Source: Eledone cirrhosa
Taxonomy: Eukaryota
Assembly (NCBI GenBank): GCA_964016885.1
Contig: OZ024741.1
Coordinates: 398,722,001-398,786,000 of the forward strand
DNA: 64,000 bases
Direction of reading: 5' to 3'
Below, piece after piece: positions 46,401-64,000 of this stretch; the first letter of the stretch is position 1, and every line of letters begins with the position of its first letter. The translations under genes were made by a program, and so were the position numbers. The notes beneath the pieces were generated by a model. It saw only the letters and a list, made by a program, of their open reading frames with translations, did no database searches and was not told the DNA's origin.

Positions 46401-49400
46401 GCCCTGTCCATGTCTAACTTATTAATAGTCTAACTTAGACCTGGCCATGTCCAACTTAGTTAAATCTAACTTAACCCTGGCCATGTCTAACTTAATAACA
46501 GTCTAACTTAGATCTGGCTATGTCTAACATAATAACAGTCTAACTTAGCCCTCGCCATGTCTAACTTAGTAATAGTCTAATTTAGCCCTGGGCATGTCTA
46601 AATAAATAATAGTCTAACTTAGCCTTGGCCATGTCTAACTTAATAACAGTCTAACTTAGCCTTGGCCATGTCTAAATTAATAACAGTCTAAATTAGCCCT
46701 GGCCATGTCTAACTTAGTAATAGTGCAACTTAGCCCTGACCATGTCTAACTTAATAACAGCCTAACTTAGCCCTGTCCATGTCTAACTTAGTAATAGTAT
46801 AACTTAACCCTGGCCATGTCTAACTTATAACAGTGTAACTTAGCACTGGCCATGTCTAACTTAATAACAGTCTAACTTAGCCCTGGCCATGTCTAACTCA
46901 GTAATAGTCTAACTTAGCCTTGGCGATGTCTAAATTAGTAACAGTCTAACTTAGCCCTGGCCATGTCTCACTTAAAAACAGTCTAACTTAGCCCTGGCCA
47001 GGTCTAACTTAATAACAGTCTAACTTAGCTATGGAGATGTCTAACTTAATAACATTCTAACTTAGCCCTGACCATGTCTAAATTAGTAAGAGTATAACTT
47101 AACCCTGGACATGTCTAACTAAATAACAGTCTAACTTAGCCCTGGCCATGTCTAACTTAATAACACTCTAACTTAGCCCTGACCATGTCTAACTTAATAA
47201 CAGTCTAACTTAGCCCTGGCCATGTCTAACTTAGTAACAGTCTAACTTAGGCCTGGCCATGTCTAACTTAGTAACAGTCTAACTTAGCCCTGGCCATGTC
47301 TAACTTAGTAATAGTCTAACTTAGCCTTGGCCATGTCTAACTTAGTAACAGTCTAACTTAGCCTTGGCCATGTCTAACTTAGTAACAGTCTAACTTAGCC
47401 CTAGCCATGTCTAACTTAATAACAGTCTAACTTAGCCCTGGCCATGTCTAACTTAATAACAGTCTAACTTAGCCCTGGCCATGTCTAACTTAGTAATAGT
47501 CTAACTTAGCCTTGGCCATGTCTAACTTAGTAATAGTCTAACTTAGCCTTGGCCATGTCTAAGTTAATAACAGTCTAAATTAGCCCTGGTCATGTCTAAC
47601 TTAATAACAGTCTAACTCAGCCCTGGCCATGTCTAGCTTAATAACAGTCTAACTTAGCCCTGGCCATGTATAACTTAATAATAGTCTAACTTAGCCCTGG
47701 CCATGTCTAACTTAATAACAGTCTAACTGAGCCCTGGCAATGTATAACTTCATAATAGTCTAACTTAGCCCTGGCCATGTCTAACTTAATAACAGTCTAA
47801 ATTATCACTGGCCATGTCTAACCTAATAACTGTCCAACTCAGACATGGCCATGTCTAACTCAATAACAGTCTAACTTAGCCCTGTCCATGTCTAACATAG
47901 TAACAGTCTAACTTAGCCCTGCCCATGTCTAACTTAGTAATAGTCTAACTTAGCCTTGGTCATGTCTAACTTAGTTAAAGTCTAACTTAACCCTGGCCAT
48001 GTCTAACTTAATAACAGTCTAACTTAGCTGTGGCCATGTCTAACATAATAACAGTCTAACTTAGCCCTGGCCATGTCTAACTTAGTAATAGTCTAATTTA
48101 GCCCTGGGCATGTCTAAATAAATAATAGTCTAACTTAGCCTTGGCCATGTCTAACTTAATAGTCTAACTTAGCCTTGGCCATGTCTAAATTAATAACAGT
48201 CTAAATTAGCCCTGGCCATGTCTAACTTAGTAATAGTGCAACTTAGCCCTGACCATGTCTAACTTAATAACAGCCTAACTTAGCCCTTGTCCATGTCTAA
48301 CTTAGTAATAGTATAACTTAACCCTGGCCATGTCTAACTTATAACAGTCTAACTTAGCACTGGCCATGTCTAACTTAATAACAGTCTAACTTAGCCCTGG
48401 CCATGTCTAACTTAGTAATAGTCTAACTTAGCCTTGGCGATGTCTAAATTAGTAACAGTCTAACTTAGCCCTGGCCATGTCTCACTTAATAACAGTCTAA
48501 ATTAACCCTGGCCATGTCTAACTCAGTAATAGTCTAACTTAGCCCTGACCATGTCTAACTGAATAACATTCTAACTTAGCCCTGACCATGTCTAACTTAG
48601 TAATAGTCTAACTTAGCCCTGGCCATGTCTAACTTAATAACAGTCTAACTTTGTCCTGGCCATGTCTAACTTAGTAACAGTCTAACTTAGCCCTGGCCAT
48701 GTATAACTTAATAACAGTCTAACTTAGCCCTGGCAATGTTTAACTTAATAACAGGCTAACTTAGCCCTGGCCATGTCTAACTTAGTAACAGTCTAACTTA
48801 GCCCTGGGCATGTCTAACTTAGTAACAGTCTAACTTAGCCTTGGCCATGTCTAACTTAGTAACAGTCTAACTTAGCCTTGGCCATGTCTAACTTAATAAC
48901 AGTCTAAATTAGACCTGGCCATGTCTAATTTAGTAATAGTCTAACTCAGCCCTGACCATGTCTAACTTAATAACAGTCTAACTTAGCCCTGGCCATGTCT
49001 AACTTAGTAATAGTATAACTTAACCCTGGCCATGTCTAACTTATAACAGTCTAACTTAGCCCTGGCCATGTCTAACTTAATAATAGTCTAACTTAGCCCT
49101 GGCCATGTCTAACTTAATAACAGTCTAAATTATCCCTGGCCATGTCTAACATAGTAACAGTCTAACTTAGCCCTGGCCATGACTAACTTAATAACAGTTT
49201 AAATTATCCCTGGCCATGTCTAACTTAGTAACAGTCTAACTTAGCCCTGGCCATGTCTAACTTAGTAACAGTCTAACTTAGCCCTGGCCATGTCTAACTT
49301 AATAACAGTCTAACTTAACCCTGGCCTTGTCTAACTTAGTAATAGTCTAACTTAGCCTTGGCCATGCCTAACTTAGTAATAGTCTAACTTTGCCCTGGCC

Positions 49401-51512
49401 ATGTCTAACTTATAACAGTCTAACTTAGCACTGGCCATGTCTAACTTAATAACAGTCTAACTTAGCCCTGGCCATGTCTAACTTAGTAATAGTCTAACTT
49501 AGCCTTGGCGATGTCTAAATTAGTAACAGTCTAACTTAGCCCTGGCCATGTCTCACTTAATAACAGTCTAACTTAGCCCTGGCCAGGTCTAACTTAATAA
49601 CAGTCTAAATTAACCCTGGCCATGTCTAACTTAGTAATAGTCTAACTTAGCCCTGACCATGTCTAACTGAATAACATTCTAACTTAGCCCTGACCATGTC
49701 TAAGTTAGTAATAGTCTAACTTAGCCCTGGCCATGTCTAACTTAATAACAGTCTAACTTTGTCCTGGCCATGTCTAACTTAGTAACAGTCTAACTTAGCC
49801 CTGGCCAGGTATAACTTAATAACAGTCTAACTTAGCCCTGGCAATGTTTAACTTAATAACAGTCTAACTTAACCCTGGCCATGTCTAACTTAGTAACAAT
49901 CTACCTTAGCCCTGGGCATGTCTAACTTAGTAACAGTCTAACTTAGCCTTGGCCATGTCTAACTTAGTAACAGTCTAACTTAGCCTTAGCCATGTCTAAC
50001 TTAATAACACTCTAAATTAGACCTGGCCATGTCTAATTTAATAATAGTCTAACTCAGCCCTGACCATGTCTAACTTAATAACAGTCTAACTTAGCCCTGG
50101 CCATGTCTAACTTAGTAATAGTATAACTTAACCCTGGCCATGTCTAACTTATAACAGTCTAACTTAGCCCTGGCCATGTCTAACTTAATAATAGTCTAAC
50201 TTAGCCCTGGCCATGTCTAAATTAATAACAGTCTAAATTATCCCTGGCCATGTCTAACATAGTAACAGTCTAACTTAGCCCTGGCCATGACTAACTTAAT
50301 AACAGTTTAAATTATCCCTGGCCATGTCTAACTTAGTAACAGTCTAACTTAGCCCTGGCCATGTCTAACTTAGTAACAGTCTAACTTAGCCCTGGCCATG
50401 TCTAACTTAACCCTGGCCTTGTCTAACTTAGTAATAGTCTAACTTAGCCTTGGCCATGCCTAACTTAGTAATAGTCTAACTTTGCCCTGGCCATGTCTAA
50501 CTTAGTAACAGTCTAACTTAGCCCTGGCCTTGTCTAACTTAGTAATAGTCTAACTTAGCCTTGGCCATGCCTAACTTAGTAATAGTGTAACTTTGTCCTG
50601 GCCATGTCTAACTTATAACAGTCTAACATAGCACTGGTCATGTCTAACTTAATAACAGTCTAACTTAGCCCTGGCCATGTCTAACTTAGTAATAGTCTAA
50701 CTTAGCCTTGGCGATGTCTAAATTAGTAACAGTCTAACTTAGCCCTGGCCATGTCTCACTTAATAACAGTCTAACTTAGCCCTGGCCAGGTTTAACTTAA
50801 TAACAGTCTAAATTAACCCTGGCCATGTCTAACTTAGTAATAGTCTAACTTAGCCCTGACCATGTCTAACTGAATAACATTCTAACTTAGCCCTGACCAT
50901 GTCTAACTTAGTAATAGTCTAACTTTGCCCTGGCCATGTCTAACTTAGTAACAGTCTAACTTAGCCCTGGCCATCTATAACTTAATAACAGTCTAACTTA
51001 TCCCTGGCCATGTCTAACTTAATAACAGTCTAATTTAGCCCTGGCCATGTCTAACTTAATAACAGTCTAAATTAGCCGTGGCCATGTCTAACTTATTAAT
51101 AGCCTAACTTAGCCCTGACTATGTCTAACTTAATAACAGTTTAACTTAGCCCTGGCCATGTCTAACTTAGTAATAGTCTAACTTAGCCCTGGCTATGTCT
51201 AACTTAGTAATAGTCTAACTTAGCCCTGGCCATGTCTAATTTAATAACAGTCTAACTTAGCCCTGGCCATGTCTAACTCAGTAACAGTCTAACTTTGCCC
51301 TGGCCATGCCTAACTTAGTAATAGTCTAACTTTGCGCTGGCCATGTCTAACTTAGTAACAGTCTACCTTAGCCCTGACCATGTCTAACTTAATAATAGTC
51401 TAATTTAGTAACAGTCTAACTCTGCCCTGGCCATGCGTAACTTAGTAATAGTCTAACTTAGCCCTGGCCATGTTCGACTTAATAACAGTCTAACTCAGAC
51501 CTAGCCATGTCT

Positions 51513-51595
51513 AACTCAGACCATAAAGAGCCGTAACTCTAAGCTGCAAACCATGGCGTCCGACCCTCTACCGATACTGCCAATTCACCTCCCTA
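51513..51595 (-). mobile_element. 5' half (tRNA-like head) of a SINE, truncated at the B box and fused to the satellite
   Basis: The reverse complement TAGGGAGGTGAATTGGCAGTATCGGTAGAGGGTCGGACGCCATGG...CTTTATGGTCTGAGTT aligns without gaps to the SINE at 57029-57111 (66/83 identical, hand count). Confidence 0.88.
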
Positions 51596-52086
51596 TAAAA
51601 AAATAATAAAGTAAAATAAGATGAAATAAAATAAAAAAATTAAAAAGGGAAGGAGGTAAAACATGTATAAAAAAGCTAAAAAAAAAGCTATTAAGTTAAT
51701 TATGGCTGACCCTGTACATGGAGGGGGGTGGATATATAATTAGAAATAACATGAGGGGAACATGTTTTTATTTACATCTTATATTTAGGGATGGTCATGT
51801 TCTCCTAATATTGGCAAACAATAGCAAAAACACTCCTCACTGTTTGGTTTATATTTATGAATTCTTATAAAGGAACAAGTTTAAAAAACTAGTGAGTACC
51901 TAAACAAACCATAGTTTGGTAACTTATTTGACAGTTACTTAAATAAACAGATTAATTACTTATTATCTAGTCATTTAATTAACTGTTACTTTGTATATTT
52001 ATTCTAGTCTCTTTGGCAATGATGTTTATAGTAAGATGATATAAATTAGTATATATTTATTTAGTTAGTTTGTGAAGGTGTGTGGC

Positions 52087-52130
52087 ACTGGGATAATTGC
52101 TGGCCTTGTGCCAAAAGTAAAAACAATTAT
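52087..52130 (+). mobile_element. 3'-end fragment of the same SINE family as 57029-57224
   Basis: ACTGGGATAATTGCTGGCCTTGTGCCAAAAGTAAAAACAATTAT versus ACTGGGTAATTGCTGGCCTTGTGCCAAAAGTAGGAACAATTAT at 57180-57222. Confidence 0.85.
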
Positions 52131-52541
52131 GTTAATTAGTTTGTATCATATTATGCTAATTAGTTTTATCACATTATGTTAATTAGTTTGTATCACATGT
52201 CAATTAGTTTGTATCACATTATGCTAATTAGTTTGTATCACATTATGTTAATTAGTTTGTACCACATTATGCTAATTAGTTTGTATCACATTATGCTAAT
52301 TAGTTTGTATCACATTATGATAATTAGTTTGTATCACATTATGTTAATTATTTGTATCACATTATGATAATTAGTTTGTATCACATTATGTTAATTAGTT
52401 TGTGCCACATTATGTTAATTAGTTTGTACCACATTATGTTAATTAGTTTGTATCACATTATGCTAATTAGTTTGTATCACATTATGATAATTAGTTTGTA
52501 TCACATTATGATAATTAGTTTGTATCACATTATGCTAATTA
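52126..52541. repeat. 24-bp AT-rich minisatellite (~17 copies)
   Basis: Unit ATTATG[T/C/A]TAATTAGTTTGTATCAC. It explains the MLISLYHI-repeat ORFs. Confidence 0.97.
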
Positions 52542-52977
52542 CTGCATTTGCTGGCCTATTGGCTGCAATTAAAAAAACATTAAAAAAATCTTCCCTGTGT
52601 CCCCAGGGTTGAATTTAGACGCTGGGAGGCCTGGGGCTCTTCAGGTTTGGAAGGCCCTCATACACAAAAAATTAGAATACACAGCAAACCCCCCCAATTT
52701 TACATATCAAAGCTTGGCACAAGTAACGGGAATTGAAAAGTTATATATACAGGTATTAAAATTCAAAAATTTTAACCATCCTAAAACTAAAAGGTCCAGC
52801 TGAGGGCACCAATAAATTGCTATGGCTGTCGCTGGTGGGGCCCCCACAGCAGGGCGCAATTGTTCCCTCTACCCTCCATTAAATCTGATCCTATGTGTCC
52901 AATATACCCATAACACCGATGGGAGGCTGAACAGACCTTAAATGTGCAGATGTTGAACAATGAAAAAAACAATGAAA

Positions 52978-53214
52978 TCATCATCATCATCACCATCACC
53001 ATAATCTTCATCGTCACCATCATCACCACCATCAACACCACCACTACCATCACCACTACCACCACCACCACCACCACCACCATTTAACATCTATTTTTCC
53101 ATGCTTGCATGGGTTAGACAGGTCACTGACATTATGAGACAAGTCTGGCCAGTTGGCCATACTGTACCTTGCTCAGACAGAACTGTATTTTGGCTGGCTT
53201 TTTACAGTTGGATA
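52978..53214 (-). mobile_element. Degenerate 3' part of a SINE/RTE-type retroposon with an expanded (TGA/TGG)n tail
   Basis: A (CAT/CAC)n run at 52978-53083 is followed directly by TTTAACATCTATTTTTCCATGCTTGCATGGGTTAGACAGG. This is the reverse complement of a ...AACCCATGC.AGCATGGAAAA...GTTAAA(TGA)n 3' end I recall from cephalopod retroposons (recall, not searched). Confidence 0.6.
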
Positions 53215-53390
53215 AAGAAATACCAGTCAAGTACTGAGGTTGATTCTTCCTCTATATCTCTTCCTCACTACCTCTCTATCATTCTCTTTCTCTCTCTTTC
53301 CTTCTCTGGAAGAAATCCGCTGTATTCAGACCTGGAGAGGAGATGAGCTCTGCCAGGTTTAAAAATGCCCGAGAAACGCTGTATGTCAAT

Positions 53391-56348
53391 ATGTGTGTGT
53401 GACAACCCACACCTATTGGTGTGTGTGTGACAGCCCACACCTATGTGTGTGTATGTGACAGCCCACACTTATTGGTGTGTGTGTGACAGCCCACACCTAT
53501 GTGTGTGTGTGTGTGTGTGATAGCCCACACCTATGTGTGTGTGTGACAGCCCACACCTATGTGTGTGTGTGTGACAGCCCACACCTATGTGTGTGTGTGT
53601 GACAGCCCACACCTATGTGTGTGTGTGTGACAGCCCACACCTATGTGTGTGTGTGACAGCTCACACCTATGTGTGTGTGTGTGACAGCCCTCACCTATGT
53701 GTGTGTGTGTGACAGCCCACACCTATGTGTGTGTGTGTGACAGCTCACACCTATGTGTGTGTGTGTGACAGCCGACACCTATGTGTGTGTGTGTGACAGC
53801 CCACACCAATGTGTGTGTGTGTGTGACAGCCCACACCTATGTGTGTGTGTGTGTGACAGCCCACACCTATGTGTGTGTGTGTGACAGCCCACGCCTATTG
53901 GTGTGTGTGTGACAGCCCACACCTATGTGTGTGTGTGTGTGTGACAGCCCACACCTATGTGTGTGTGTGTGTGACAGCCCACACCTATGTGTGTGTGTGT
54001 GACAGGCCACACCTATGTGTGTGTGTGTGACAGCCCACACCTATGTGTGTGTGTGTGACAGCCACACCTATGTGTGTGTGTGTGTGTGACAGCTCACACC
54101 TATGTGTGTGTGACAGCCCACACCTATGTGTGTGTGTGTGACAGCCCACACCTATGTGTGTGTGTGTATGTGTGTGACAGCTCACACCTATGTGTGTGTG
54201 TGTGTGTGACAGCTCACACCTATGTGTGTGTGTGTGACAGCCGACACCTATGTGTGTGTGTGTGACAGCCCACACCTATGTGTGTGTGTGTGACAGCTCA
54301 CACCTATGTGTGTGTGTGTGACAGCCCACACCTATGTGTGTGTGTGTGTGACAGCCCACACCTATGTGTGTGTGTGTGACACCCCACACCTATGTGTGTG
54401 TGTGAGACAGCCGACACCTATGTGTGTGTGTGTGTGACAGCCCACACTTATGTGTGTGTGTGTGTGACAGCCCACACCTATGTGTATGTGACAGCCCACA
54501 CCTATGTGTGTGTGTGTGACAGCCCACACCTATGTGTGTGTGTGACAGCCCAAACCTATGTGTGTGGGTGTGTGACAGCTCACACCTATGTGTGTGTGTG
54601 TGTGACAGCCCACACCTATGTGTGTGTGTGTGACAGCCCACACCTATGTGTGTGTGTTTGTGACAGCCCACACCTATTGGTGTGTGACAGCTCACATCTA
54701 TGTGTGTGTGTGTGACAGCCCACACCTATGTGTGTGTGTGTGAGACAGCCCACACCTATTGGTGTGTGACAGCTCACATCTATGTGTGTGTGTGTGTGTG
54801 ACAGCCCACACCTATGTGTGTGTGTGTGAGACAGCCCACACCTATGTGTGTGTGTTTGTGACAGCCCACACCTATTGGTGTGTGACAGCTCACATCTATG
54901 TGTGTGTGTGTGACAGCCCACACCTATGTGTGTGTATGTGTGACAGCCCACACCTATTGGTGTGTGACAGCTCACATCTATGTGTGTGTGTGTGACAGCC
55001 CACACCTATGTGTGTGTGTGTGAGACAGCCCACACCTATGTGTGTGTGTTTGTGACAGCTCACACCTATGTGTATGTGTGTGTGACAGCCGACACCTATG
55101 TGTATGTGTGTGTGACAGCTCACACCTATATGTGTGTGTGTGTGACAGGCCACACCTATGTGTGTGTGTGTGTGACAGCCCACACCTATGTGTGTTTGTG
55201 TGACAGCCCACACCTATGTGTGTGTGTTTGTGACATCTCACACCTATGTGTGTGTGTGTGACAGCTCACACCTATGTGTGTGTGTGTGTGTGTGACAGCC
55301 CACACCTATGTGTGTGTGTGTGTGACAGCTCACACCTATGTGTGTGTGTGTGACAGCTCACACCTATGTGTGTGTGTGTGACAGCCCTCACCTATGTGTG
55401 TGTGTGTGACAGCCCACACCTATGTGTGTGTGTGTGACAGCTCACACCTATGTGTGTGTGTGTGACAGCCCACACCAATGTGTGTGTGTGTGACAGCCCA
55501 CACCTATGTGTGTGTGTGTGTGACAGCCCACACCTATGTGTGTGTGTGTGACAGCCCACACCTATTGGTGTGTGTGTGACAGCCCACACCTATGTGTGTG
55601 TGTGTGTGTGACAGCCCACACCTATGTGTGTGTGTGTGTGACAGCCCACACCTATGTGTGTGTGTGTAACAGGCCACACCTATGTGTGTGTGTGTGACAG
55701 CCCACACCTATGTGTGTGTGTGTGACAGCCACACCTATGTGTGTGTGTGTGTGACAGCTCACACCTATGTGTGTGTGTGTGACAGCCCACACCTATGTGT
55801 GTGTGTGTGACAGCCCACACCTATGTGTGTGTGTGAATGTGTGTGACAGCTCACACCTATGTGTGTGTGTGTGTGTGACAGCTCACACCTATGTGTGTGT
55901 GTGTGACAGCCGACACCTATGTGTGTGTGTGTGTGACAGCCCACACCTATGTGTGTGTGTGTGACAGCTCACACCTATGTGTGTGTGTGTGACAGCCCAC
56001 ACCTATGTGTGTGTGTGTGTGACAGCCCACACCTATGTGTGTGTGTGTGACACCCCACACCTATGTGTGTGTGTGAGACAGCCGATACCTATGTGTGTGT
56101 GTGTGTGACAGCCCACACTTATGTGTGTGTGTGTGTGACAGCCCACACCTATGTGTGTGTGACAGCCCACACCTATGTGTGTGTGTGTGACAGCCCACAC
56201 CTATGTGTGTGTGACAGCCCAAACCTATGTGTGTGGGTGTGTGACAGCTCACACCTTTGTGTGTGTGTGTGTGACAGCCCACACCTATGTGTGTGTGTGT
56301 GACAGCCCACACCTATGTGTGTGTGTTTGTGACAGCCCACACCTATGT
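53391..56348. repeat. Compound minisatellite: constant core GACAGC[C/T]CACACCTAT + variable (GT)n, ~100 units
   Basis: Directly visible. It accounts for all HTHT/CVCV ORFs between 53268 and 56360. Confidence 0.98.
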
Positions 56349-56379
56349 AAGCTGAAATAGTTTCAGAGTTGCTTCCCCT

Positions 56380-56623
56380 GACAGTGGAAACACGTGCGCG
56401 CGTGCGAATGTTTTTTGCGCACGCGTAGAGAGAGAGTGAGAGAGTGAGAGTGAAAGAAAGAGACAGACTACAAAAGGGGGATAGCGGGAGGGAGGGGGGA
56501 ATTGAGGAGTGCTACAGAAACATATATACATTTCTGTGTGTGTGTAATATATATATATATACACACAGAAATATAGAAATATATATATATACACACAGAA
56601 ATATATATACATTTCTATGTGTG

Positions 56624-56700
<77 letters not shown>

Positions 56701-56780
56701 GAAATGTATATATATTTCTGTGTGTATTACACACACAGAAATGTATATATATATATATACACACAGAAATATATATACAT
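56380..56780 (+). repeat. Dispersed copy of the internal part of Helitron-like element B (59768-60247)
   Basis: GACAGTGGAAACACGTGCGCGCGTGCGAATGTTTTTTGCGCACGCGTAGAGAG...GGGGGATAGCGGGAGGG...GGAGTGCTACAGAAACATATATACATTTCTG is shared with 59768-60050. It includes a (TA)n run at 56626-56692. Confidence 0.85.
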
Positions 56781-56931
56781 CCCTTAGCTACTGTACTGTA
56801 TCTGTTGCTATCTCTCTCTCTCCCTCCAGCTATCCCTATCTTTTAGTCTGTCTGTTTCTCTCACTCTCACTCTTTCTCTTTGTAACACATTAACATTCCT
56901 CCCCTCTATCGCTGTGACGAATGGGGAGATG

Positions 56932-56958
56932 GAGGAGGAGGAGGAGGAGGAGGAGGAG
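56932..56958. repeat. (GAG)9 microsatellite
   Basis: Directly visible; source of the poly-E ORF. Confidence 0.9.
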
Positions 56959-57028
56959 AGAGTCACTTCGTCACTTCACCTCTGCCTTTCTTTCTCTCCC
57001 CTCTCACTCCCTCATTACGTACAGACAT

Positions 57029-57224
57029 TAGGGCGGTGGATTGGCAGAATCTGTAGCGAGTCGGACACCATGCTTCATAGCATGGAGTTACGTCCCTTTA
57101 CAGTCTGAGTTCAAATACCGCCGAGGTTAACTTTGCCTTTCATCCTCACGGGGTCGATAAAATAAAGAACCAGTAATGTACTGGGTAATTGCTGGCCTTG
57201 TGCCAAAAGTAGGAACAATTATTA
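57029..57224 (+). mobile_element. tRNA-derived SINE (octopus-like family), near full length
   Basis: A-box-like GGTGGATTGGCAGAATC and B box GAGTTCAAATAC (57107-57118). Central CCGAGGTTAACTTTGCCTTTCATCCTCACGGGGTCGATAAAATAA and 3' CTTGTGCCAAAA...ATTATT tail. Homologous fragments at 51513, 52087 and ~53212-53245. Confidence 0.85.
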
Positions 57225-57342
57225 GAAACATTGCTTCATTTTTACATATCTAAGCATTAGTAAAATAACTAATAATTTCAAAAGTAATTTTTCAATTCCA
57301 ATTGTTATGAACAGCAAAACATTAATACTAATTTTGTTCTAA

Positions 57343-57610
57343 GAAATATATATACATTTCTGTGTGTGTAATATATATATATATACACACACACAGAAAT
57401 ATATATACATTTCTGTGTGTAATATATATATATATATACACACAGAAATATATATACATTTCTGTGTGTGTAATATATATATATACACACAGAAATATAT
57501 ATACATTTCTGTGTGTGTAATATATATATACACACACAGAAATATATATATATACACACAGAAATATATATACATTTCTGTGTGTCTAATATATATATAT
57601 ATATATATAC
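57343..57610. repeat. Self-complementary minisatellite ACACAGAAATATATATACATTTCTGTGTGT + (TA)n
   Basis: About 5 units. The same unit also clusters at 56513-56780 and 60026-60247. Confidence 0.9.
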
Positions 57611-58744
57611 ATTATGAAGAGAGAAGAAACATTTAGATATAATTAGTAATAAAATGTATCATACCTAAACTGTTCCTAAATTCCTCGACTACGTAGTTTC
57701 GTGGCATAAACAAAAACAATATATCAAAGATATAGAGTCCTTGCGAGGTCTGCCGACTTATCAAGAGGATACCTCATTTTACTAGTCTCAAGAACGCGTC
57801 TACACGACGTGAGAAAGAATCCCAAAAGGCGGAGGGGGAGATAGTCACGCGATATAACGGTCGAGAAACAGAGCTAAGCCTCTTATAACCACGAAAAAAA
57901 TACCACGGAGGCGGAGGGGGTATTCATATCGAGGCCGTAGAAGAGGTAGTGAAGAAGGCGAGAAGTATGAGTAATGGAAGCTTTCCAGTTGTCCCCACAC
58001 TTCAAAGATTGCTCGACCAGAGGGAGTTATTAATACATTTAGAAACACACAGATACATGCGGACACACACATATATACATGAATGCATCCGCACCCAACT
58101 GTGAGTTAAGGGTGCCAACTTCACCGATGTTGCTCAATGAATGACTGGGACAGACCAATTCAGTTTGAACCAGACTGAACCAGTATCAGAGTTAAAAATA
58201 CATTATGAAGAGAGAAGAAACATTTAGATATAATTAGTAATAAAATGTATCATACCTAAACTGTTCCTAAATTCCTCGACTACGTAGTTTCGTGGCATAA
58301 ACAAAAACAATATATCAAAGATATAGAGTCCTTGCGAGGTCTGCCGACTTATCAAGAGGATACCTCATTTTACTAGTCTCAAGAACGCGTCTACACGACG
58401 TGAGAAAGAATCCCAAAAGGCGGAGGGGGAGATAGTCACGCGATATAACGGTCGAGAAACAGAGCTAAGCCTCTTATAACCACGAAAAAAATACCACGGA
58501 GGCGGAGGGGGTATTCATATCGAGGCCGTAGAAGAGGTAGTGAAGAAGGCGAGAAGTATGAGTAATGGAAGCTTTCCAGTTGTCCCCACACTTCAAAGAT
58601 TGCTCGACCAGAGGGAGTTATTAATACATTTAGAAACACACAGATACATGCGGACACACACATATATACATGAATGCATCCGCACCCAACTGTGAGTTAA
58701 GGGTGCCAACTTCACCGATGTTGCTCAATGAATGACTGGGACAG
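57607..58744 (+). repeat. 591-bp tandem duplication (57607-58197 and 58198-58744, second copy truncated)
   Basis: Identical ORF-track peptides at 57845 and 58436 (offset 591); the copies look identical by eye. Confidence 0.95.
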
Positions 58745-58767
58745 TCGGACACACACATATATACATG

Positions 58768-58934
58768 AATGTATTTTTAACTCTGATACTGGTTCAGTCT
58801 AGTTCAACTGAATTGGTCTGTCCCAGTCATTCATTGAGCAACATCGGTGAAGTTGGCACCCTTAACGCACAGTTGGGTGCGGATGCATTCATGTATATAT
58901 GTGTGTGTCCGCATGTATCTGTGTGTTTCTAAAT
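58768..58934 (-). repeat. Inverted copy of 58037-58204
   Basis: AATGTATTTTTAACTCTGATACTGG...GTGTTTCTAAAT is the reverse complement of ATTTAGAAACAC...CCAGTATCAGAGTTAAAAATACATT, with ~3 differences. Confidence 0.93.
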
Positions 58935-58974
58935 ATATTGTATATATATATATATATATATACACACACAGAAA

Positions 58975-59241
58975 TATATGGGCATTTCTCTGTTTGTCTG
59001 TCTGTCTGTCTGTCTGTTCTTCCCTAAAACTCAAATGTAGGTGCTACAGAAATATTACCTTCCCCTTCCTTTCTCCACTTTGGTACTACCAAGAGAAACA
59101 CTGTTGCTATAGAAACATTACCTTCCCCTCTCCACTGACTTTGGTCACTGAGGCCGAGGGAATCGCTGGTTGCTATAGAGACACCTTGCACAAGCCAGAA
59201 GTAACCAGTTCGAGGCGGTTCTGACTTGACACCATGCCAAG
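58975..59241 (+). mobile_element. Possible degraded non-autonomous Helitron-like element (upstream unit of the tandem train)
   Basis: The head TATGGGCATTTCTCTGTTTGTCTGTCTG matches 59258-59295, and CCCTAAAACTC matches element C. It ends CCAAG directly before the next TC. No clear hairpin. Confidence 0.4.
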
Positions 59242-59722
59242 TCTACTTATAATATATAATGGGCATTTCTCTGTTTGTTTGTCTGTCTGTCCGTCTGTAA
59301 AAAATGCCAAGGAAACAAATAGACGCGGTTTCAAATCTCTATGCTTTTCAAATTCATTACATTAATCTTTATCTATACGTTTCGCTTTACGAGTGTTTCG
59401 ACTTACGAGTGTTTCGGCTTACGAGTGTTTCGGCTTATCATTTCGCAAACGTTTATATATTTCCATCGTTATATCATAACGTTTATGTATCGTAACGTTT
59501 ATATTTCCGTCATTAATCTCTTTCTCCTTTTTCGTTTTAACATATATTTATTTCAAAGATTTCACCGCATAGATAACATATATATTTATACATGCATAAA
59601 AGACACACCGAGAGACGGTGAACATGTGGTGCCGAAAACATTTCTCATCCAAATCTCAACAATATCAGTATATACACTAGATTTGCTAGCAGATAACCGC
59701 CCACCGGGTGGTTTTCTGCTAG
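59242..59722 (+). mobile_element. Non-autonomous Helitron-like element A
   Basis: 5' TCTACTTATAATATATAA...(CTGT)n head. 3' hairpin CTAGCAGATAACCGCCC-ACC-GGGTGGTTTTCTGCTAG ending in CTAG. Confidence 0.65.
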
Positions 59723-60176
59723 TCTCCTTATAATATATAACCAGCAATTTCTCTGTCTGTCTGTCCGACAGTGGAAACACGTGCGCGCGTGCGAATGTTT
59801 TTTGCGCACGCGTAGAGAGAGAGTGAGAGTGAAAGAAAGAGAAGACTACGAGAGGGGGATAGCGGGAGGGAGAGAGGGAGAGAGAGAGAGTGAATAGACG
59901 CTAAAACACGTGCTCACGTGCGAATGTTTTTTGCGCACGCGTAGAGAGAGAGTGAGAGTGAAAGAAAGAGACAGACTACAAGAGGGGGATAGCGGGAGGG
60001 AGAGAGGGGTGAATTAAGGAGTGCTACAGAAACATATATACATTTCTGTGTGTGTGTAATATATATATATATACACACACAGAAATATATATATATACAC
60101 ACAGAAATATATATACATTTCTGTGTGTGTAATATATATATACATACAGAAATATATATACATTTCTGTGTGTGTA

Positions 60177-60207
<31 letters not shown>

Positions 60208-60284
60208 GAAATATATATACATTTCTGTGTGTGTAATATATATATATACTAGCAGAAAACCACGCGTAGGCGGTTTTCTGCTAG
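59723..60284 (+). mobile_element. Non-autonomous Helitron-like element B
   Basis: 5' TCTCCTTATAATATATAA...(CTGT)n. 3' ACTAGCAGAAAACC-N10-GGTTTTCTGCTAG(T). Internal ~140-bp-period duplication and palindromic minisatellite. Confidence 0.65.
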
Positions 60285-61139
60285 TCTATATATATAAAAC
60301 TGAGGATGTCTGTCTGTGTGTGTGTGAGTTCGAATCACTAAAACTCGAGAACCACCCAACCGACTGTTTTCAAACTTTACACATGTAATACTTATGTTTC
60401 AGGGAGTGTTCTGAGCAAAAAGAAATTTCAAATTTTCAATGCCCTAGGGACCGCATTAGGCGATGTAGCGATCTCTCTCTATAATTCTTAGTCTTTCTCT
60501 TTTTAGATAGATACATACATATAACGTCGTGCCCCTATAATATCTGTCTGCATGTCTGACTGTCTGCATTACGTCACTTCCCCGAGGATGTGTGTGTGTG
60601 TGACTGTGAGTTTGAATCCCTAAAACTCGAGAAGTACCCAACCGATTTTTCAAACTTTACATTCAACCTTTTTTTATCTCATTAGGTGAAAAACTGCGTT
60701 TTTAAAGATTTTTAGGTTTTTTTTGAGGCGTTACGTCAGACCGATTTCCTTGAAATTGTAATTATGTATTAGTTAGTCTCTTCTTCATACCGTGAGCAAA
60801 GGAAATCCAACTTTCTTATGGCCTAGGGCCCACATTAGGTGAAAAACTTCATTTTTTCAGCTTCTTAGGGCTTTTTGGAGGCGTTACGTCTAGCAGATTT
60901 TCCCGACATTTCAAGGCATATTATGCACATAAAAAAAATTCATTTTCTTGATCCCCTAGGTGAAAACCTGCATTTTTTCTGCTTCATCGAGGAAAATCTT
61001 AAAGATTATCCAGCCATCAGAGTATTCGGTTTATTTTCTTTACATATTGTTCAGGCATGCTGTTTTTCCACGATTAGGTCTGTTGGCGGCCCGTGTTCCA
61101 AAATATCTTATCCCGTGCAACACCGGGTACCACTGCTAG
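60285..61139 (+). mobile_element. Non-autonomous Helitron-like element C
   Basis: 5' TCTATATATATAAAACTGAGGATGTCTGTCTGTGTG...AAAACTCGAGAACCACCCAACCGA. Canonical 3' end CCCGTGCAACACCGGG-TACCACTG-CTAG|T (short GC hairpin about a dozen nt before the CTRR end). Internal repeat at 60302-60383 and 60584-60661. Confidence 0.72.
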
Positions 61140-61173
61140 TCATAAATAGAATTTATTTTATTTACATAAATAT

Positions 61174-61312
61174 CACACACACACGCACACACACACACAT
61201 ACACACATACACACACATTTACACATTCACACACGTTCACACATACACATTCACACACACACACACACAGCCATTCACACACACACATTCACACACATTC
61301 ACACACACACAA

Positions 61313-61348
<36 letters not shown>
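61174..61348. repeat. Imperfect (CA)n then (TA)n microsatellite
   Basis: Directly visible. Confidence 0.95.
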
Positions 61349-61640
61349 GCGCATGCCTTAGTGGTTAGAACATTGGGCATGCAATCTTGAGATTGTGAGT
61401 TCGATTCTCGAACAAAGTGATACATTGTGTCCTTGAGAAAGACACTTTATTTCACGTTGTTCCAGTTTACTCAGCCGTGTTGTGACGTCACTGGTGCTAA
61501 GTTGTATCAGCCATTGCCTTTCTCTTGAACAACATGAGTGGCGTGGAGAGAGGAGGCTGGTATACATGGTCTGGTGCTACTAAAGGGGAACTTTCTAGGT
61601 GCAAATCCCATGGTCACTGAAGAGGGTCTTTACACTTTAC
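61349..61640 (+). mobile_element. Second tRNA-derived SINE family (CORE-like central motif), degenerate
   Basis: A box GCCTTAGTGGTTAG, B box GAGTTCGATTC (61397-61407), central TGTGTCCTTGAGAAAGACACTTTATTTCAC, and a short CTTTAC repeat tail. Confidence 0.8.
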
Positions 61641-61664
61641 ACACACACACACACACACACATAC

Positions 61665-61700
<36 letters not shown>

Positions 61701-61715
61701 CATCTATCTATCTAT
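61640..61715. repeat. (CA)n + (TCTA)n microsatellite
   Basis: Directly visible; abuts the LINE 5' truncation. Confidence 0.92.
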
Positions 61716-64000
61716 GTAGATAGAAATAAGACCGAAAAGGAACTGGTAGATAAAGTAGAATAGGCACTTAGGAGTGGCAACGTAGCCAGCGTGCTAGCGA
61801 TGAGAACGACCTTGGACCAGTTCTTCGACGCAAAGCATGAAGGCTGCGATGTCAGAAGCAAAATACGTGCTCTGGGAAATGAGGGAGCCAAAGCTGTTAG
61901 CTGGGCCCGAGTGACGGAGGCGAAAAGTGGCAACAAGTCCACGATTCGGACTTTGAAGGACCAAGACGGACGCGTGATACGTGAGCCGAAGCAGATGTGC
62001 GCGGCCTTTCAGCGGCACTTTGCTCAACTGTTCGGGAGGGGCGGCGCGCCGGGAGGGGCTATGGATTTCGGTCCATACTTCGACGGCCTACCGTGACTCT
62101 CGGACAGCGAGGCGAAGTTCTGCGAAAGGCCGATTTCGGCCGCTGAGATAGGGGACGCGCTGCAATGCGGCAAAAGCAAATCTCCAGGTCTCGACGGTCT
62201 ACCCTACGAACTTTACGTAGCAATGCCGGACTTGTTCTCCGGTCTCATGGAAGCGGTCTACTGCAACTGGCAGCAGAACGGGAAAATTCCCAGTTCTGTG
62301 ACCAAGGGCGTAATCACGTTAGTCAGGAAGGACGAGAACAAGGGGGATGACATAGGCAACTTCCGGCCCATAACTCTGCTCAACACAAAGTTACAGATTT
62401 TGGCCAAGGTGTTGGCAAAGAGGCTGGCGCTTGTCGTCGAAAACCTGGTGGGAGAGGCGCCATCATGCGCAATCCCGACCACGTCCATAGACGACAACCT
62501 CCACCTCATGCGATACATCATAGAGAGGGTAGGGTGTAAACCCGGCTTCCGTGGGGCCCTGATCAACTTGGATCAGTCTAAGGCTTTCGATAGGGTTGAC
62601 CATCGTTACCCGAATGCTGTGCTCGAGGCGGCAGGCTTCGGTCCCGTGTTCAGGGGCTGGATTACTGCAATGCACAACAGCAACATCTGCTCAAGGGTCA
62701 AGGTGAACGGCTACCTCTCGGAGCCGTTCCATATCACGCGATCCATCCGACAGGGATTCCCTCTCTCCTCCCTTCTGTATGTACTGACTCTCGAGCCACT
62801 ACTGCGGAAGATGGAGTTATTGCAGGGCATCCCTTTGGAACCGGGACTGCGAAAAGCGGCGCTGGCCTACGCCGACGACGTGACAGTAATGGTGTCGAGC
62901 ACCTCGCAAATCGGGGAGTTCGGCACCTTACTGGAGGAATACGAAAGGTTCACAGGAGCGAAGCTGAACCGGGACAAATCCGTCGGTTTGCAACTCGGAA
63001 CGTGGAGAGGCAAACCGATGCCTTCCGATGACGTCGTCGGACGCTGGACGGAAGGACCGGTAAATCTGCTCGGGGTCTGGTTTGGTCCTGACCTCCAGGT
63101 GGAGAAGAACTGGAATGAGGTGACGGCCAAGGTGTTTGCGCTCACCCAGAAGTGGGCCGAGTGCAAACTATCCTTGAAAGGTCGAGCGGAGGTGGCGAAC
63201 ACTTTTATAGCGTCCGTCATCTACTACCGCTTGACCGTCGTGCCTTGTCCAGCCAAAACGCTCACCAAAATGGAGCGCGCGCTCTTCCAATTCCTTTGGA
63301 AGAAACGGGCTCCTTTGGTGAGACGATCCATCTGCTGCCAACACCCTTCAAATGGAGGGCTGGGGATGCCGTGGCTGACGATGCGCAAACACGCGCTCAG
63401 ACTGCGGTACCTCCACGTATTCCTCACCAGACAACCGGTGTGGGCCCCGTTTGTGAGACGAGCCTTCCCACAACTCGTCTCGCTGACCGAGCTGCAGTCC
63501 TGGGTCAAGCAAAGACCGAGGAAAATGGGCGACTGGCACATCGAATGTGCTCAGGCGCTCACAGTCCTCTGGCAAACGGACCCGGCGATCAGTGGAGACT
63601 CCACTTCGACATTCTATAGAGGGTTGGTTCGCAGCAATTGCGACGACACGCCCGGAGAAACTCTAGGCGTAGAGGAGGACGAACTGGCCAGTCTATTCGG
63701 TAGGACTTTCCGCCCGGAACCAATGGACAACTTCCAAAAGTCCCTGGCCTGGCAGTGCTACCGAGGAGCTCTACCAGTTCGAGACACGCTCTACAGTCAT
63801 GGGCTCCCGGGAAAGGACCCTTCGAAAAAGATCTGTCCGAGATGCGTGCGCGACGAGGAAACCGTCGCGCCCGCATTTGTACACAGCCCGGGCGTTACCG
63901 ACCTGTGGGGCTATGTAGAACGACTATTGTCGCGGGTGCGACCAATCCAGTTGACCACCGAGTCCATTGTCATGATCAAACCGCCACCCTCCTTCAAAAC
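61716..64000 (+). mobile_element. 5'-truncated non-LTR retrotransposon (L1 group, Tx1-like); continues past the window
   Basis: Abrupt shift to GC/CpG-rich sequence and a single reading frame with ORF2 RT motifs. No ORF1 or APE endonuclease upstream. Confidence 0.92.
61716..64000 (+). pseudogene. LINE ORF2 reverse transcriptase + zf-RVT remnant
   Basis: Hand translation gives in-frame stops TAG 61761 and TGA 62094, then an open frame 62097-64000 (absent from the ORF track because it runs off the end). Motifs: KSPGLDGLPYELY, NFRPITLLN, LDQSKAFDRVDH, IRQGFPLS, YADD (62868-62879), GAKLNRDKS, LLGVWF, LSLKGRAEVANT, GGLGMP, CPRC (63834-63845). Confidence 0.9.

Follow-up and report, generated by a model that had tools for sequence, protein, structure and literature searches.

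The window, that is, the whole 64,000-nucleotide stretch of DNA analysed here, is occupied from position 1 to 51512 on the minus strand by a 37-bp satellite array that extends further left to G000:C2:398684398, and thus the satellite of more than 51 kb announced by the original prediction was found and totals about 89 kb, or some 2,400 units, after its extension left of the window. The 37-bp unit is composed of a 21-bp subunit A and a 16-bp subunit B, with one 10-mer closing both of them, and its layout can be written as x-y-z-y, where x-y-z are the 27 nt matching the 3' UTR of a LINE and the last 10 nt of subunit A are a second copy of the internal 10-mer y. This satellite occupies a single locus, given that in pattern searches of the whole genome (3.0 Gb) all 460 matches of a 31-mer of the unit and all 638 matches of a 17-nt pattern laid over its rearranged joint fell inside the array. 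Such a long head-to-tail array of a short unit (about 89 kb with a 37-bp period) is what a satellite derived from a transposable element should look like. The units at the edge are distinct, with a divergence of 8.1% over the first 10 subunits against 4.6% in the interior, and the ancestral LINE letters show no gradient toward either end of the array. Within the array, the segment G000:C2:398684778-398707051 is duplicated rightward with a shift of 22,294 bp and two mismatches across about 22 kb, and in the right half, further stretches recur exactly at distances of 3265, 6526, and 7209 bp; this block duplication could be a very recent expansion or an effect of the assembly. The literature searched, mainly open-access main texts, holds no published account of this 37-bp satellite, and supplements such as the repeat library of PMC13282606 could list it.

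At its right edge, the array meets the head of a young tRNA-type SINE (51513-51593, minus strand), the 3' half of which, about 110 nt, is missing. An ungapped alignment of 51513-51595 (minus strand) to 57029-57111 with 66/83 identities had been claimed and was reproduced here (BLAST E 1e-15); the copy used in that alignment is a full-length but more distant one (57031-57222, plus strand, 79.5% identical to the edge head), and a closer relative, the copy L002, matches 51513-51595 at 81/83 positions. In full relatives of this SINE, the head is followed by the remainder of the B box and by a body and tail of about 110 nt, whereas the edge copy turns into satellite, and indeed the SINE match stops at 51513 and the array begins right there, as had been proposed. 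The head carries an A-box-like motif at 51571-51582 (minus strand), recognized in the sequence by what we take to be the A-box consensus, and is preceded on its 5' side by an AT-rich flank (51594-51645, minus strand) with an ATTAT about 14 nt upstream, placed as the 5' target-site copy is in full-length SINEs, which is weak evidence in so AT-rich a flank.

The last 10 SINE bases (51513-51522, minus strand) form a microhomology with the array, matching its majority at 8/10 positions and a common variant at 9/10. The first four bases of the B box presumably lie within this 10-mer, and so the break does fall inside the B box as predicted, although not at its start but four bases into it, according to the consensus that we assume. 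The SINE-type form of the 10-mer, GGTCTGAGTT, occurs twice on the array strand of the window, at the edge and one subunit inward, where it replaces the array majority at 51492-51501 of the first A subunit (51488-51508, minus strand; three differences from the majority). The twofold occurrence had been read as two SINE-like array units, of which only one subunit of the array really has SINE letters, because the first of these units is the SINE sequence itself. The 9-mer GTCTGAGTT is found additionally once in the array interior, at 47844. The two SINE-diagnostic letters are also array variants, present in 184/2386 and 62/2386 A subunits, and they come together only in the first A subunit, the SINE edge, and one unit among about 2384 interior ones; past one unit inward, no gradient of SINE-like states was seen.

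This junction is real in the assembly, and a 16-mer across it occurs once in the genome, for which reason a SINE-LINE chimeric family was rejected. Among the contigs and reads of the six sequencing runs X1-X6, all under one species label, whose filtered records leave holes and whose RAD runs barely cover the locus, none bridges 51513, and the junction thus rests on the assembly. One contig of X1, which may be the assembled sample, joins the flank to the SINE head (51567-52113), and a few satellite reads are present in three other samples. An Rfam scan of 51300-64000 gave no match at the junction, only 148 sub-threshold matches, nearly all of them miRNA models on simple repeats.

The SINE family amounts to 3231 first-look candidates in the genome and has the features of a tRNA-type SINE, namely, a short element in high copy number with an A/B-box-like head (by the box consensus we assume), an AT-rich tail, and target-site duplications, which measure at least 7 nt in 33/53 full-length copies and start with ATTA or AATT in 24 of these. 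ARAGORN detected no tRNA in four SINE loci, and the available part of PMC5804259 offers no name for the family. In flanks not chosen for SINE content, this SINE covers 3979/228,492 bp, or 1.7%, so that some array ends will fall in one. Five other independent head-only copies stop at the same base as the edge copy (L212, L214, L227/L236, L228, and L230; 30/30 matches read), two of them with duplications, of 11 nt in L228 and 7 nt in L230, while the edge copy has no flanking duplication longer than 3 nt. L259 is a further head-only copy. In controls, truncations were seen in 2/30 matches read (55 matches) six bases upstream and in 1/30 read (347 matches) six bases downstream, and a truncation hot spot at the B box is unsupported by them. 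In L208, a 79-bp insertion with a short duplication lies in another SINE at the identical B-box position, and on contig C28 ten copies of one SINE variant share common flanks (L164-L173), eight of them at 43-47 Mb, in what looks like a segmental duplication.

The best source of the unit lies elsewhere. A 17-mer of the unit has 1180 exact matches in the genome, of which 1136 fall within the array and 44 elsewhere, with 0 for the reversed control, and among the 13 outside matches listed, 12 are 3' ends of one LINE family and one is unrelated, with a 21/21 match in 9 of the 13. Ungapped, 27 of the 37 bases of the unit (subunit B together with the initial 11 nt of A) equal the LINE 3' UTR, with an identity of 25/27 to the family majority and of 26/27 to a minority variant, the one that the 17-mer query selected, and three more bases lengthen the match to 27/30. 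Aligned to three natural LINE ends, the unit obtains scores of 46-48, where shuffled units average 25-27 and attain the real score in 1, 0, and 0 of 2000 cases, so its homology to a dispersed transposable element exceeds chance. Since chance alone should yield a lone 25/27 match about 0.26 times per genome, the case for the LINE depends on this match falling in an end that a whole family conserves, and the core is in fact present in all the copies examined, 29 young and 30 older, with the motif single in each of these 59, while the rearranged joint is exclusive to the array (638/638). The direction is from transposable element to satellite, since the motif is a single and conserved part of the element.

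The source element, with over a thousand first-look candidates, shows the features of a LINE: its reverse transcriptase ORF ends close to the 3' end, there are copies truncated at the 5' end, and the tail is a simple repeat. Its reverse transcriptase gives RVT_1 at E 6e-29 and 2e-31, in agreement with Atlas, and RVT_1 is the only Pfam hit on the LINE pieces scanned. We presume it to belong to the CR1/L2 clade from the C-terminal motifs of ORF2 as we know them. The family has at least two age classes, a young one diverging 1.0% from the column majority (29 copies) and an older one at 5.1% (30 copies). Active CR1 and RTE LINEs along with abundant SINEs are reported for Octopus vulgaris in the available part of PMC13282606, and the features of its SINEs suggest that the animal studied here, too, may be an octopus. 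Likely, then, the 37-bp unit was built from the 3' UTR of a dispersed LINE, and the general idea of a satellite arising from a transposable element holds, but with a LINE and not the SINE as that element.

The far end of the array adjoins a 1.2-kb minisatellite with a 55-bp unit (G000:C2:398683154-398684396, L044), and there too the join lies at a look-alike, 8/9 to the array 10-mer; in addition, the LINE's own tail has 8 nt in common with this junction. The 55-bp family is a multi-locus one (1400 matches) that sits inside single copies of another retroelement, presumably RTE-like by its motifs, and an origin of the 55-mer in the SINE B box was rejected for this reason. At L044, the minisatellite seems to have arisen on the spot by amplification of the coding 3' end of that retroelement, the last 130 nt of which remain alongside with the simple-repeat tail; the 55-bp unit also forms arrays at several other loci, many of them near contig ends, which suggests repeated independent births. 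The sequence GGGATAATT at the far end was considered as a piece of SINE tail and rejected, being an array variant in 119/2386 A subunits. The far end had been pointed out as the place to look for the SINE 3' half and a matching target-site duplication, and neither was found there on the minus strand; words of 12-16 nt from the SINE upstream flank are absent from the 22 kb beyond it, and a span of 22 kb to each side of the array holds neither the SINE 3' half nor the remainder of the LINE. With no LINE flank at either array end, the parent-element surroundings that would mark a birth site are lacking.

The region near the array is dense in tandem repeats. At 52087-52130 (plus strand), the 3' tail of a 5'-truncated SINE runs directly into a 24-bp minisatellite (52126-52541), the unit of which (window 52060-52541) resembles the DNA just before the truncated SINE; this minisatellite may be a repeat that arose from a SINE tail and its target-site duplication. 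An old composite repeat, 76-81% alike, flanks the array on both sides (window 53211-53393 and G000:C2:398682372-398682898); window 61717-64000 holds a reverse-transcriptase-like retroelement fragment with an 86% copy at G000:C2:398674780-398675779; and at 53392-56348 and 57610-58790 lie a 28-bp TG-rich minisatellite (103 units) and a direct duplication of about 590 bp, as judged by eye.

Regarding relative ages, the array units diverge 4.8% from their majority and the older LINE copies 5.1%, and the nearest SINE subfamily diverges 14/824 or 1.7% (95% CI 0.9-2.8%), as measured on the unselected 3' half of 8 copies picked by common diagnostic letters. The C>T rate is 3.6% in the array, 3.6% in the older LINE copies, and 1.4% in the SINE, while C>A changes reach 3.7% in the array vs. 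1.4% in the dispersed older LINE copies, about 2.5 times more with C>T being equal. Compared with the diversity of the array, the SINE subfamily seems 2-3 times younger, and this dating is suggestive only, because the edge SINE head itself, with 2/82 differences (CI 0.3-8.5%), has a poorly bounded age, and because the array variants are non-independent and show an excess of C>A, so that the array clock may run fast.

Against this background, the proposal that the unit was amplified from the B-box region of the SINE, with the edge as its ancestral units and a preserved birth site, is very hard to believe. It draws on a 13/19 block between monomer and SINE, which is present as claimed but close to chance level, being reached by 23/400 (L002) and 7/400 (57029) shuffles over the 40 nt after the junction, and by 53/150 and 43/150, respectively, over the whole SINE, and next to the 25-26/27 ungapped match with the LINE it is of course a poor one. 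An alignment anchored at the junction with the SINE's next 27 nt does give p 0.001 (57029) and 0.017 (L002), and the combination of SINE letters found one unit inward recurs in only one of about 2384 interior units. But the local alignments give p 0.017-0.034 (57029) and 0.11-0.13 (L002) over the 40 nt past the junction, and 0.03-0.04 and 0.10-0.16 over the whole SINE, and this weak signal thus drops with the closest relative, the opposite of what descent predicts. Moreover, the 55-mer of the neighbouring minisatellite, plainly part of another element, scored p 0.005, 0.045, and 0.21 when submitted to the identical test against three old SINE copies, and such p-values therefore mislead. Since the array majority has the LINE letters in the 10-mer, the SINE-like letters at the edge are derived and not relics; they end after one unit, and the far end is devoid of the SINE 3' half. 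The match with the LINE largely refutes a SINE origin of the unit.

We favor, with somewhat better than even confidence, a unit derived from the LINE 3' UTR to whose array edge the SINE head was fused later by a microhomology-mediated deletion. A microhomology joining an existing array to a SINE had already been offered as the alternative in the original prediction, and it is the best-supported reading in view of the match at the junction 10-mer, the ages, and the LINE source. The SINE head breaks off within the B box, at the point where its own strand resembles the array most closely, the junction 10-mer being within one mismatch of 190 array 10-mers and the next same-strand SINE 10-mer listed of 7, although four SINE 10-mers of the opposite strand fit the array still better. 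The LINE 3' end would have been rearranged, in two template jumps or slippages, into x-y-z-y, which unequal exchange and block duplication may then have amplified, and a young SINE would have inserted normally into the AT-rich DNA beside the array. End joining, single-strand annealing, or a replication template switch could afterwards have joined the SINE 10-mer to an array unit, removing the SINE 3' half along with the old array edge. The SINE letters one unit inward may be due to short-tract conversion with an offset of 21 bp, or else a variant unit already in place may have offered perfect microhomology. No function is implied for this array-SINE locus, and Pol III read-through into the array is unlikely because the B box is broken.

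A rather unlikely reading, to be taken seriously all the same, would keep the locus as a birth site made by a template-switch chimera, in which a LINE 3' end was copied, perhaps with a start on the far-end element's RNA, the reverse transcriptase switched to SINE RNA at an AGTT look-alike, and the LINE piece was amplified in place. The SINE head, the LINE 3' UTR repeats, and the 3' end of a second element with its simple-repeat tail do follow each other in 5'-3' order on a single strand, as such a chimera predicts, but a common strand for SINE head, array, and far-end element is expected by chance 1 in 4. Chimeras of L1, L2, and RTE have been described, including 3'-truncated small-RNA heads and triple chimeras, in the available part of PMC4476161, and the LINE tail has its 8 nt in common with the far-end junction. 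Set against this, there is no target-site duplication (words of 12-16 nt over 22 kb beyond the far end), which could have been erased later, and the far end shows no LINE tail; the 16-mer across the junction occurs nowhere else in the genome; the SINE subfamily seems younger than the array diversity; and, because the LINE has x on the upstream side of the join point, the repeats must pre-date the joining. A three-part retrotranscript fossil, starting on the 3' end of one retroelement, jumping to the LINE 3' UTR, stuttering into the first 37-bp repeats, and finishing on SINE RNA, strikes us as improbable, and, if true, it would make the satellite the product of a single retrotransposition event, with the retro-pieces on either side still in place.

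Tailless retrocopies are described mainly in therian mammals, and we hold it similarly doubtful that a break at the array end primed reverse transcription in the T-loop region of the SINE RNA and so added a head-only copy. The five independent head-only copies that end at the same base, two of them with their 11- and 7-nt duplications, speak for it, as do the internally primed tailless copies of mammals (PMC5322556, in its available part); the edge copy, however, lacks a duplication of more than 3 nt, has the array on one side only, and ends at a base for which the controls (2/30 upstream and 1/30 downstream) do not demonstrate a truncation hot spot. Finally, an assembly mis-join of the array with the SINE-bearing flank is most improbable: 51513 is bridged by no contig or read in two sets of runs (X1, X4-X6 and X1-X4) and the 22,294-bp array block is duplicated with two mismatches in its 22-kb core, recently or by an assembly effect, but the more diverged edge units (8.1% vs. 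4.6%) are typical of natural edges, the X1 contig does join flank and SINE head, and the filtered records leave holes while RAD coverage is sparse.

In summary, the 37-bp satellite is likely a new example of a known process and not a preserved SINE birth site; as a principle this is nothing new, because satellites derived from transposable elements, including LINE 3' ends, are already known. What the fusion of a SINE head to a LINE-derived array offers is the base-level pedigree of a young single-locus satellite, with its source family, its rearrangement, and both ends readable in one genome, usable as a test case for satellite origins if alleles or sister species are compared, together with the caution that the element adjoining an array need not be its parent. 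As far as the available parts of the sources go, microhomology at satellite junctions is known for Rsp-like/1.688 in Drosophila (PMC7403614), as are junctions of tandem repeats with transposable elements in rye (PMC4857426), and like these the present array ends at short look-alikes in its neighbour, but here with one event per end of a single array and no spread. With the U6/LINE chimeras (PMC4476161) and tailless retropseudogenes (PMC5322556), as presented in the parts available, the locus shares the head of a Pol III RNA that breaks off internally and gives way to LINE 3' sequence, while it differs by having neither target-site duplication nor LINE tail and by a LINE part amplified about 2,400-fold. 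SINE-derived tandem repeats include salamander Hy/Pol III, Xenopus satellite 1, and a mouse B1-derived VNTR (PMC9659126, available part), and compared with them the SINE adjoins the array here, yet the unit is not SINE sequence, the SINE contributing no more than the junction itself and up to two letters one unit inward. The closest parallels in the same part of that source are the satellites from LINE 3' ends, namely, the common cetacean satellite (L1 3' part), the chicken HinfI repeat (CR1 3' UTR plus part of ORF2), and the Drosophila HeT-A 3'-derived satellite, which likewise have a tandem unit from the 3' end of a non-LTR retrotransposon; unlike them, the unit here measures only 37 bp, with 27-30 nt of UTR and an internal 10-mer doubled, and it stands at one locus while its parent family persists as young copies.
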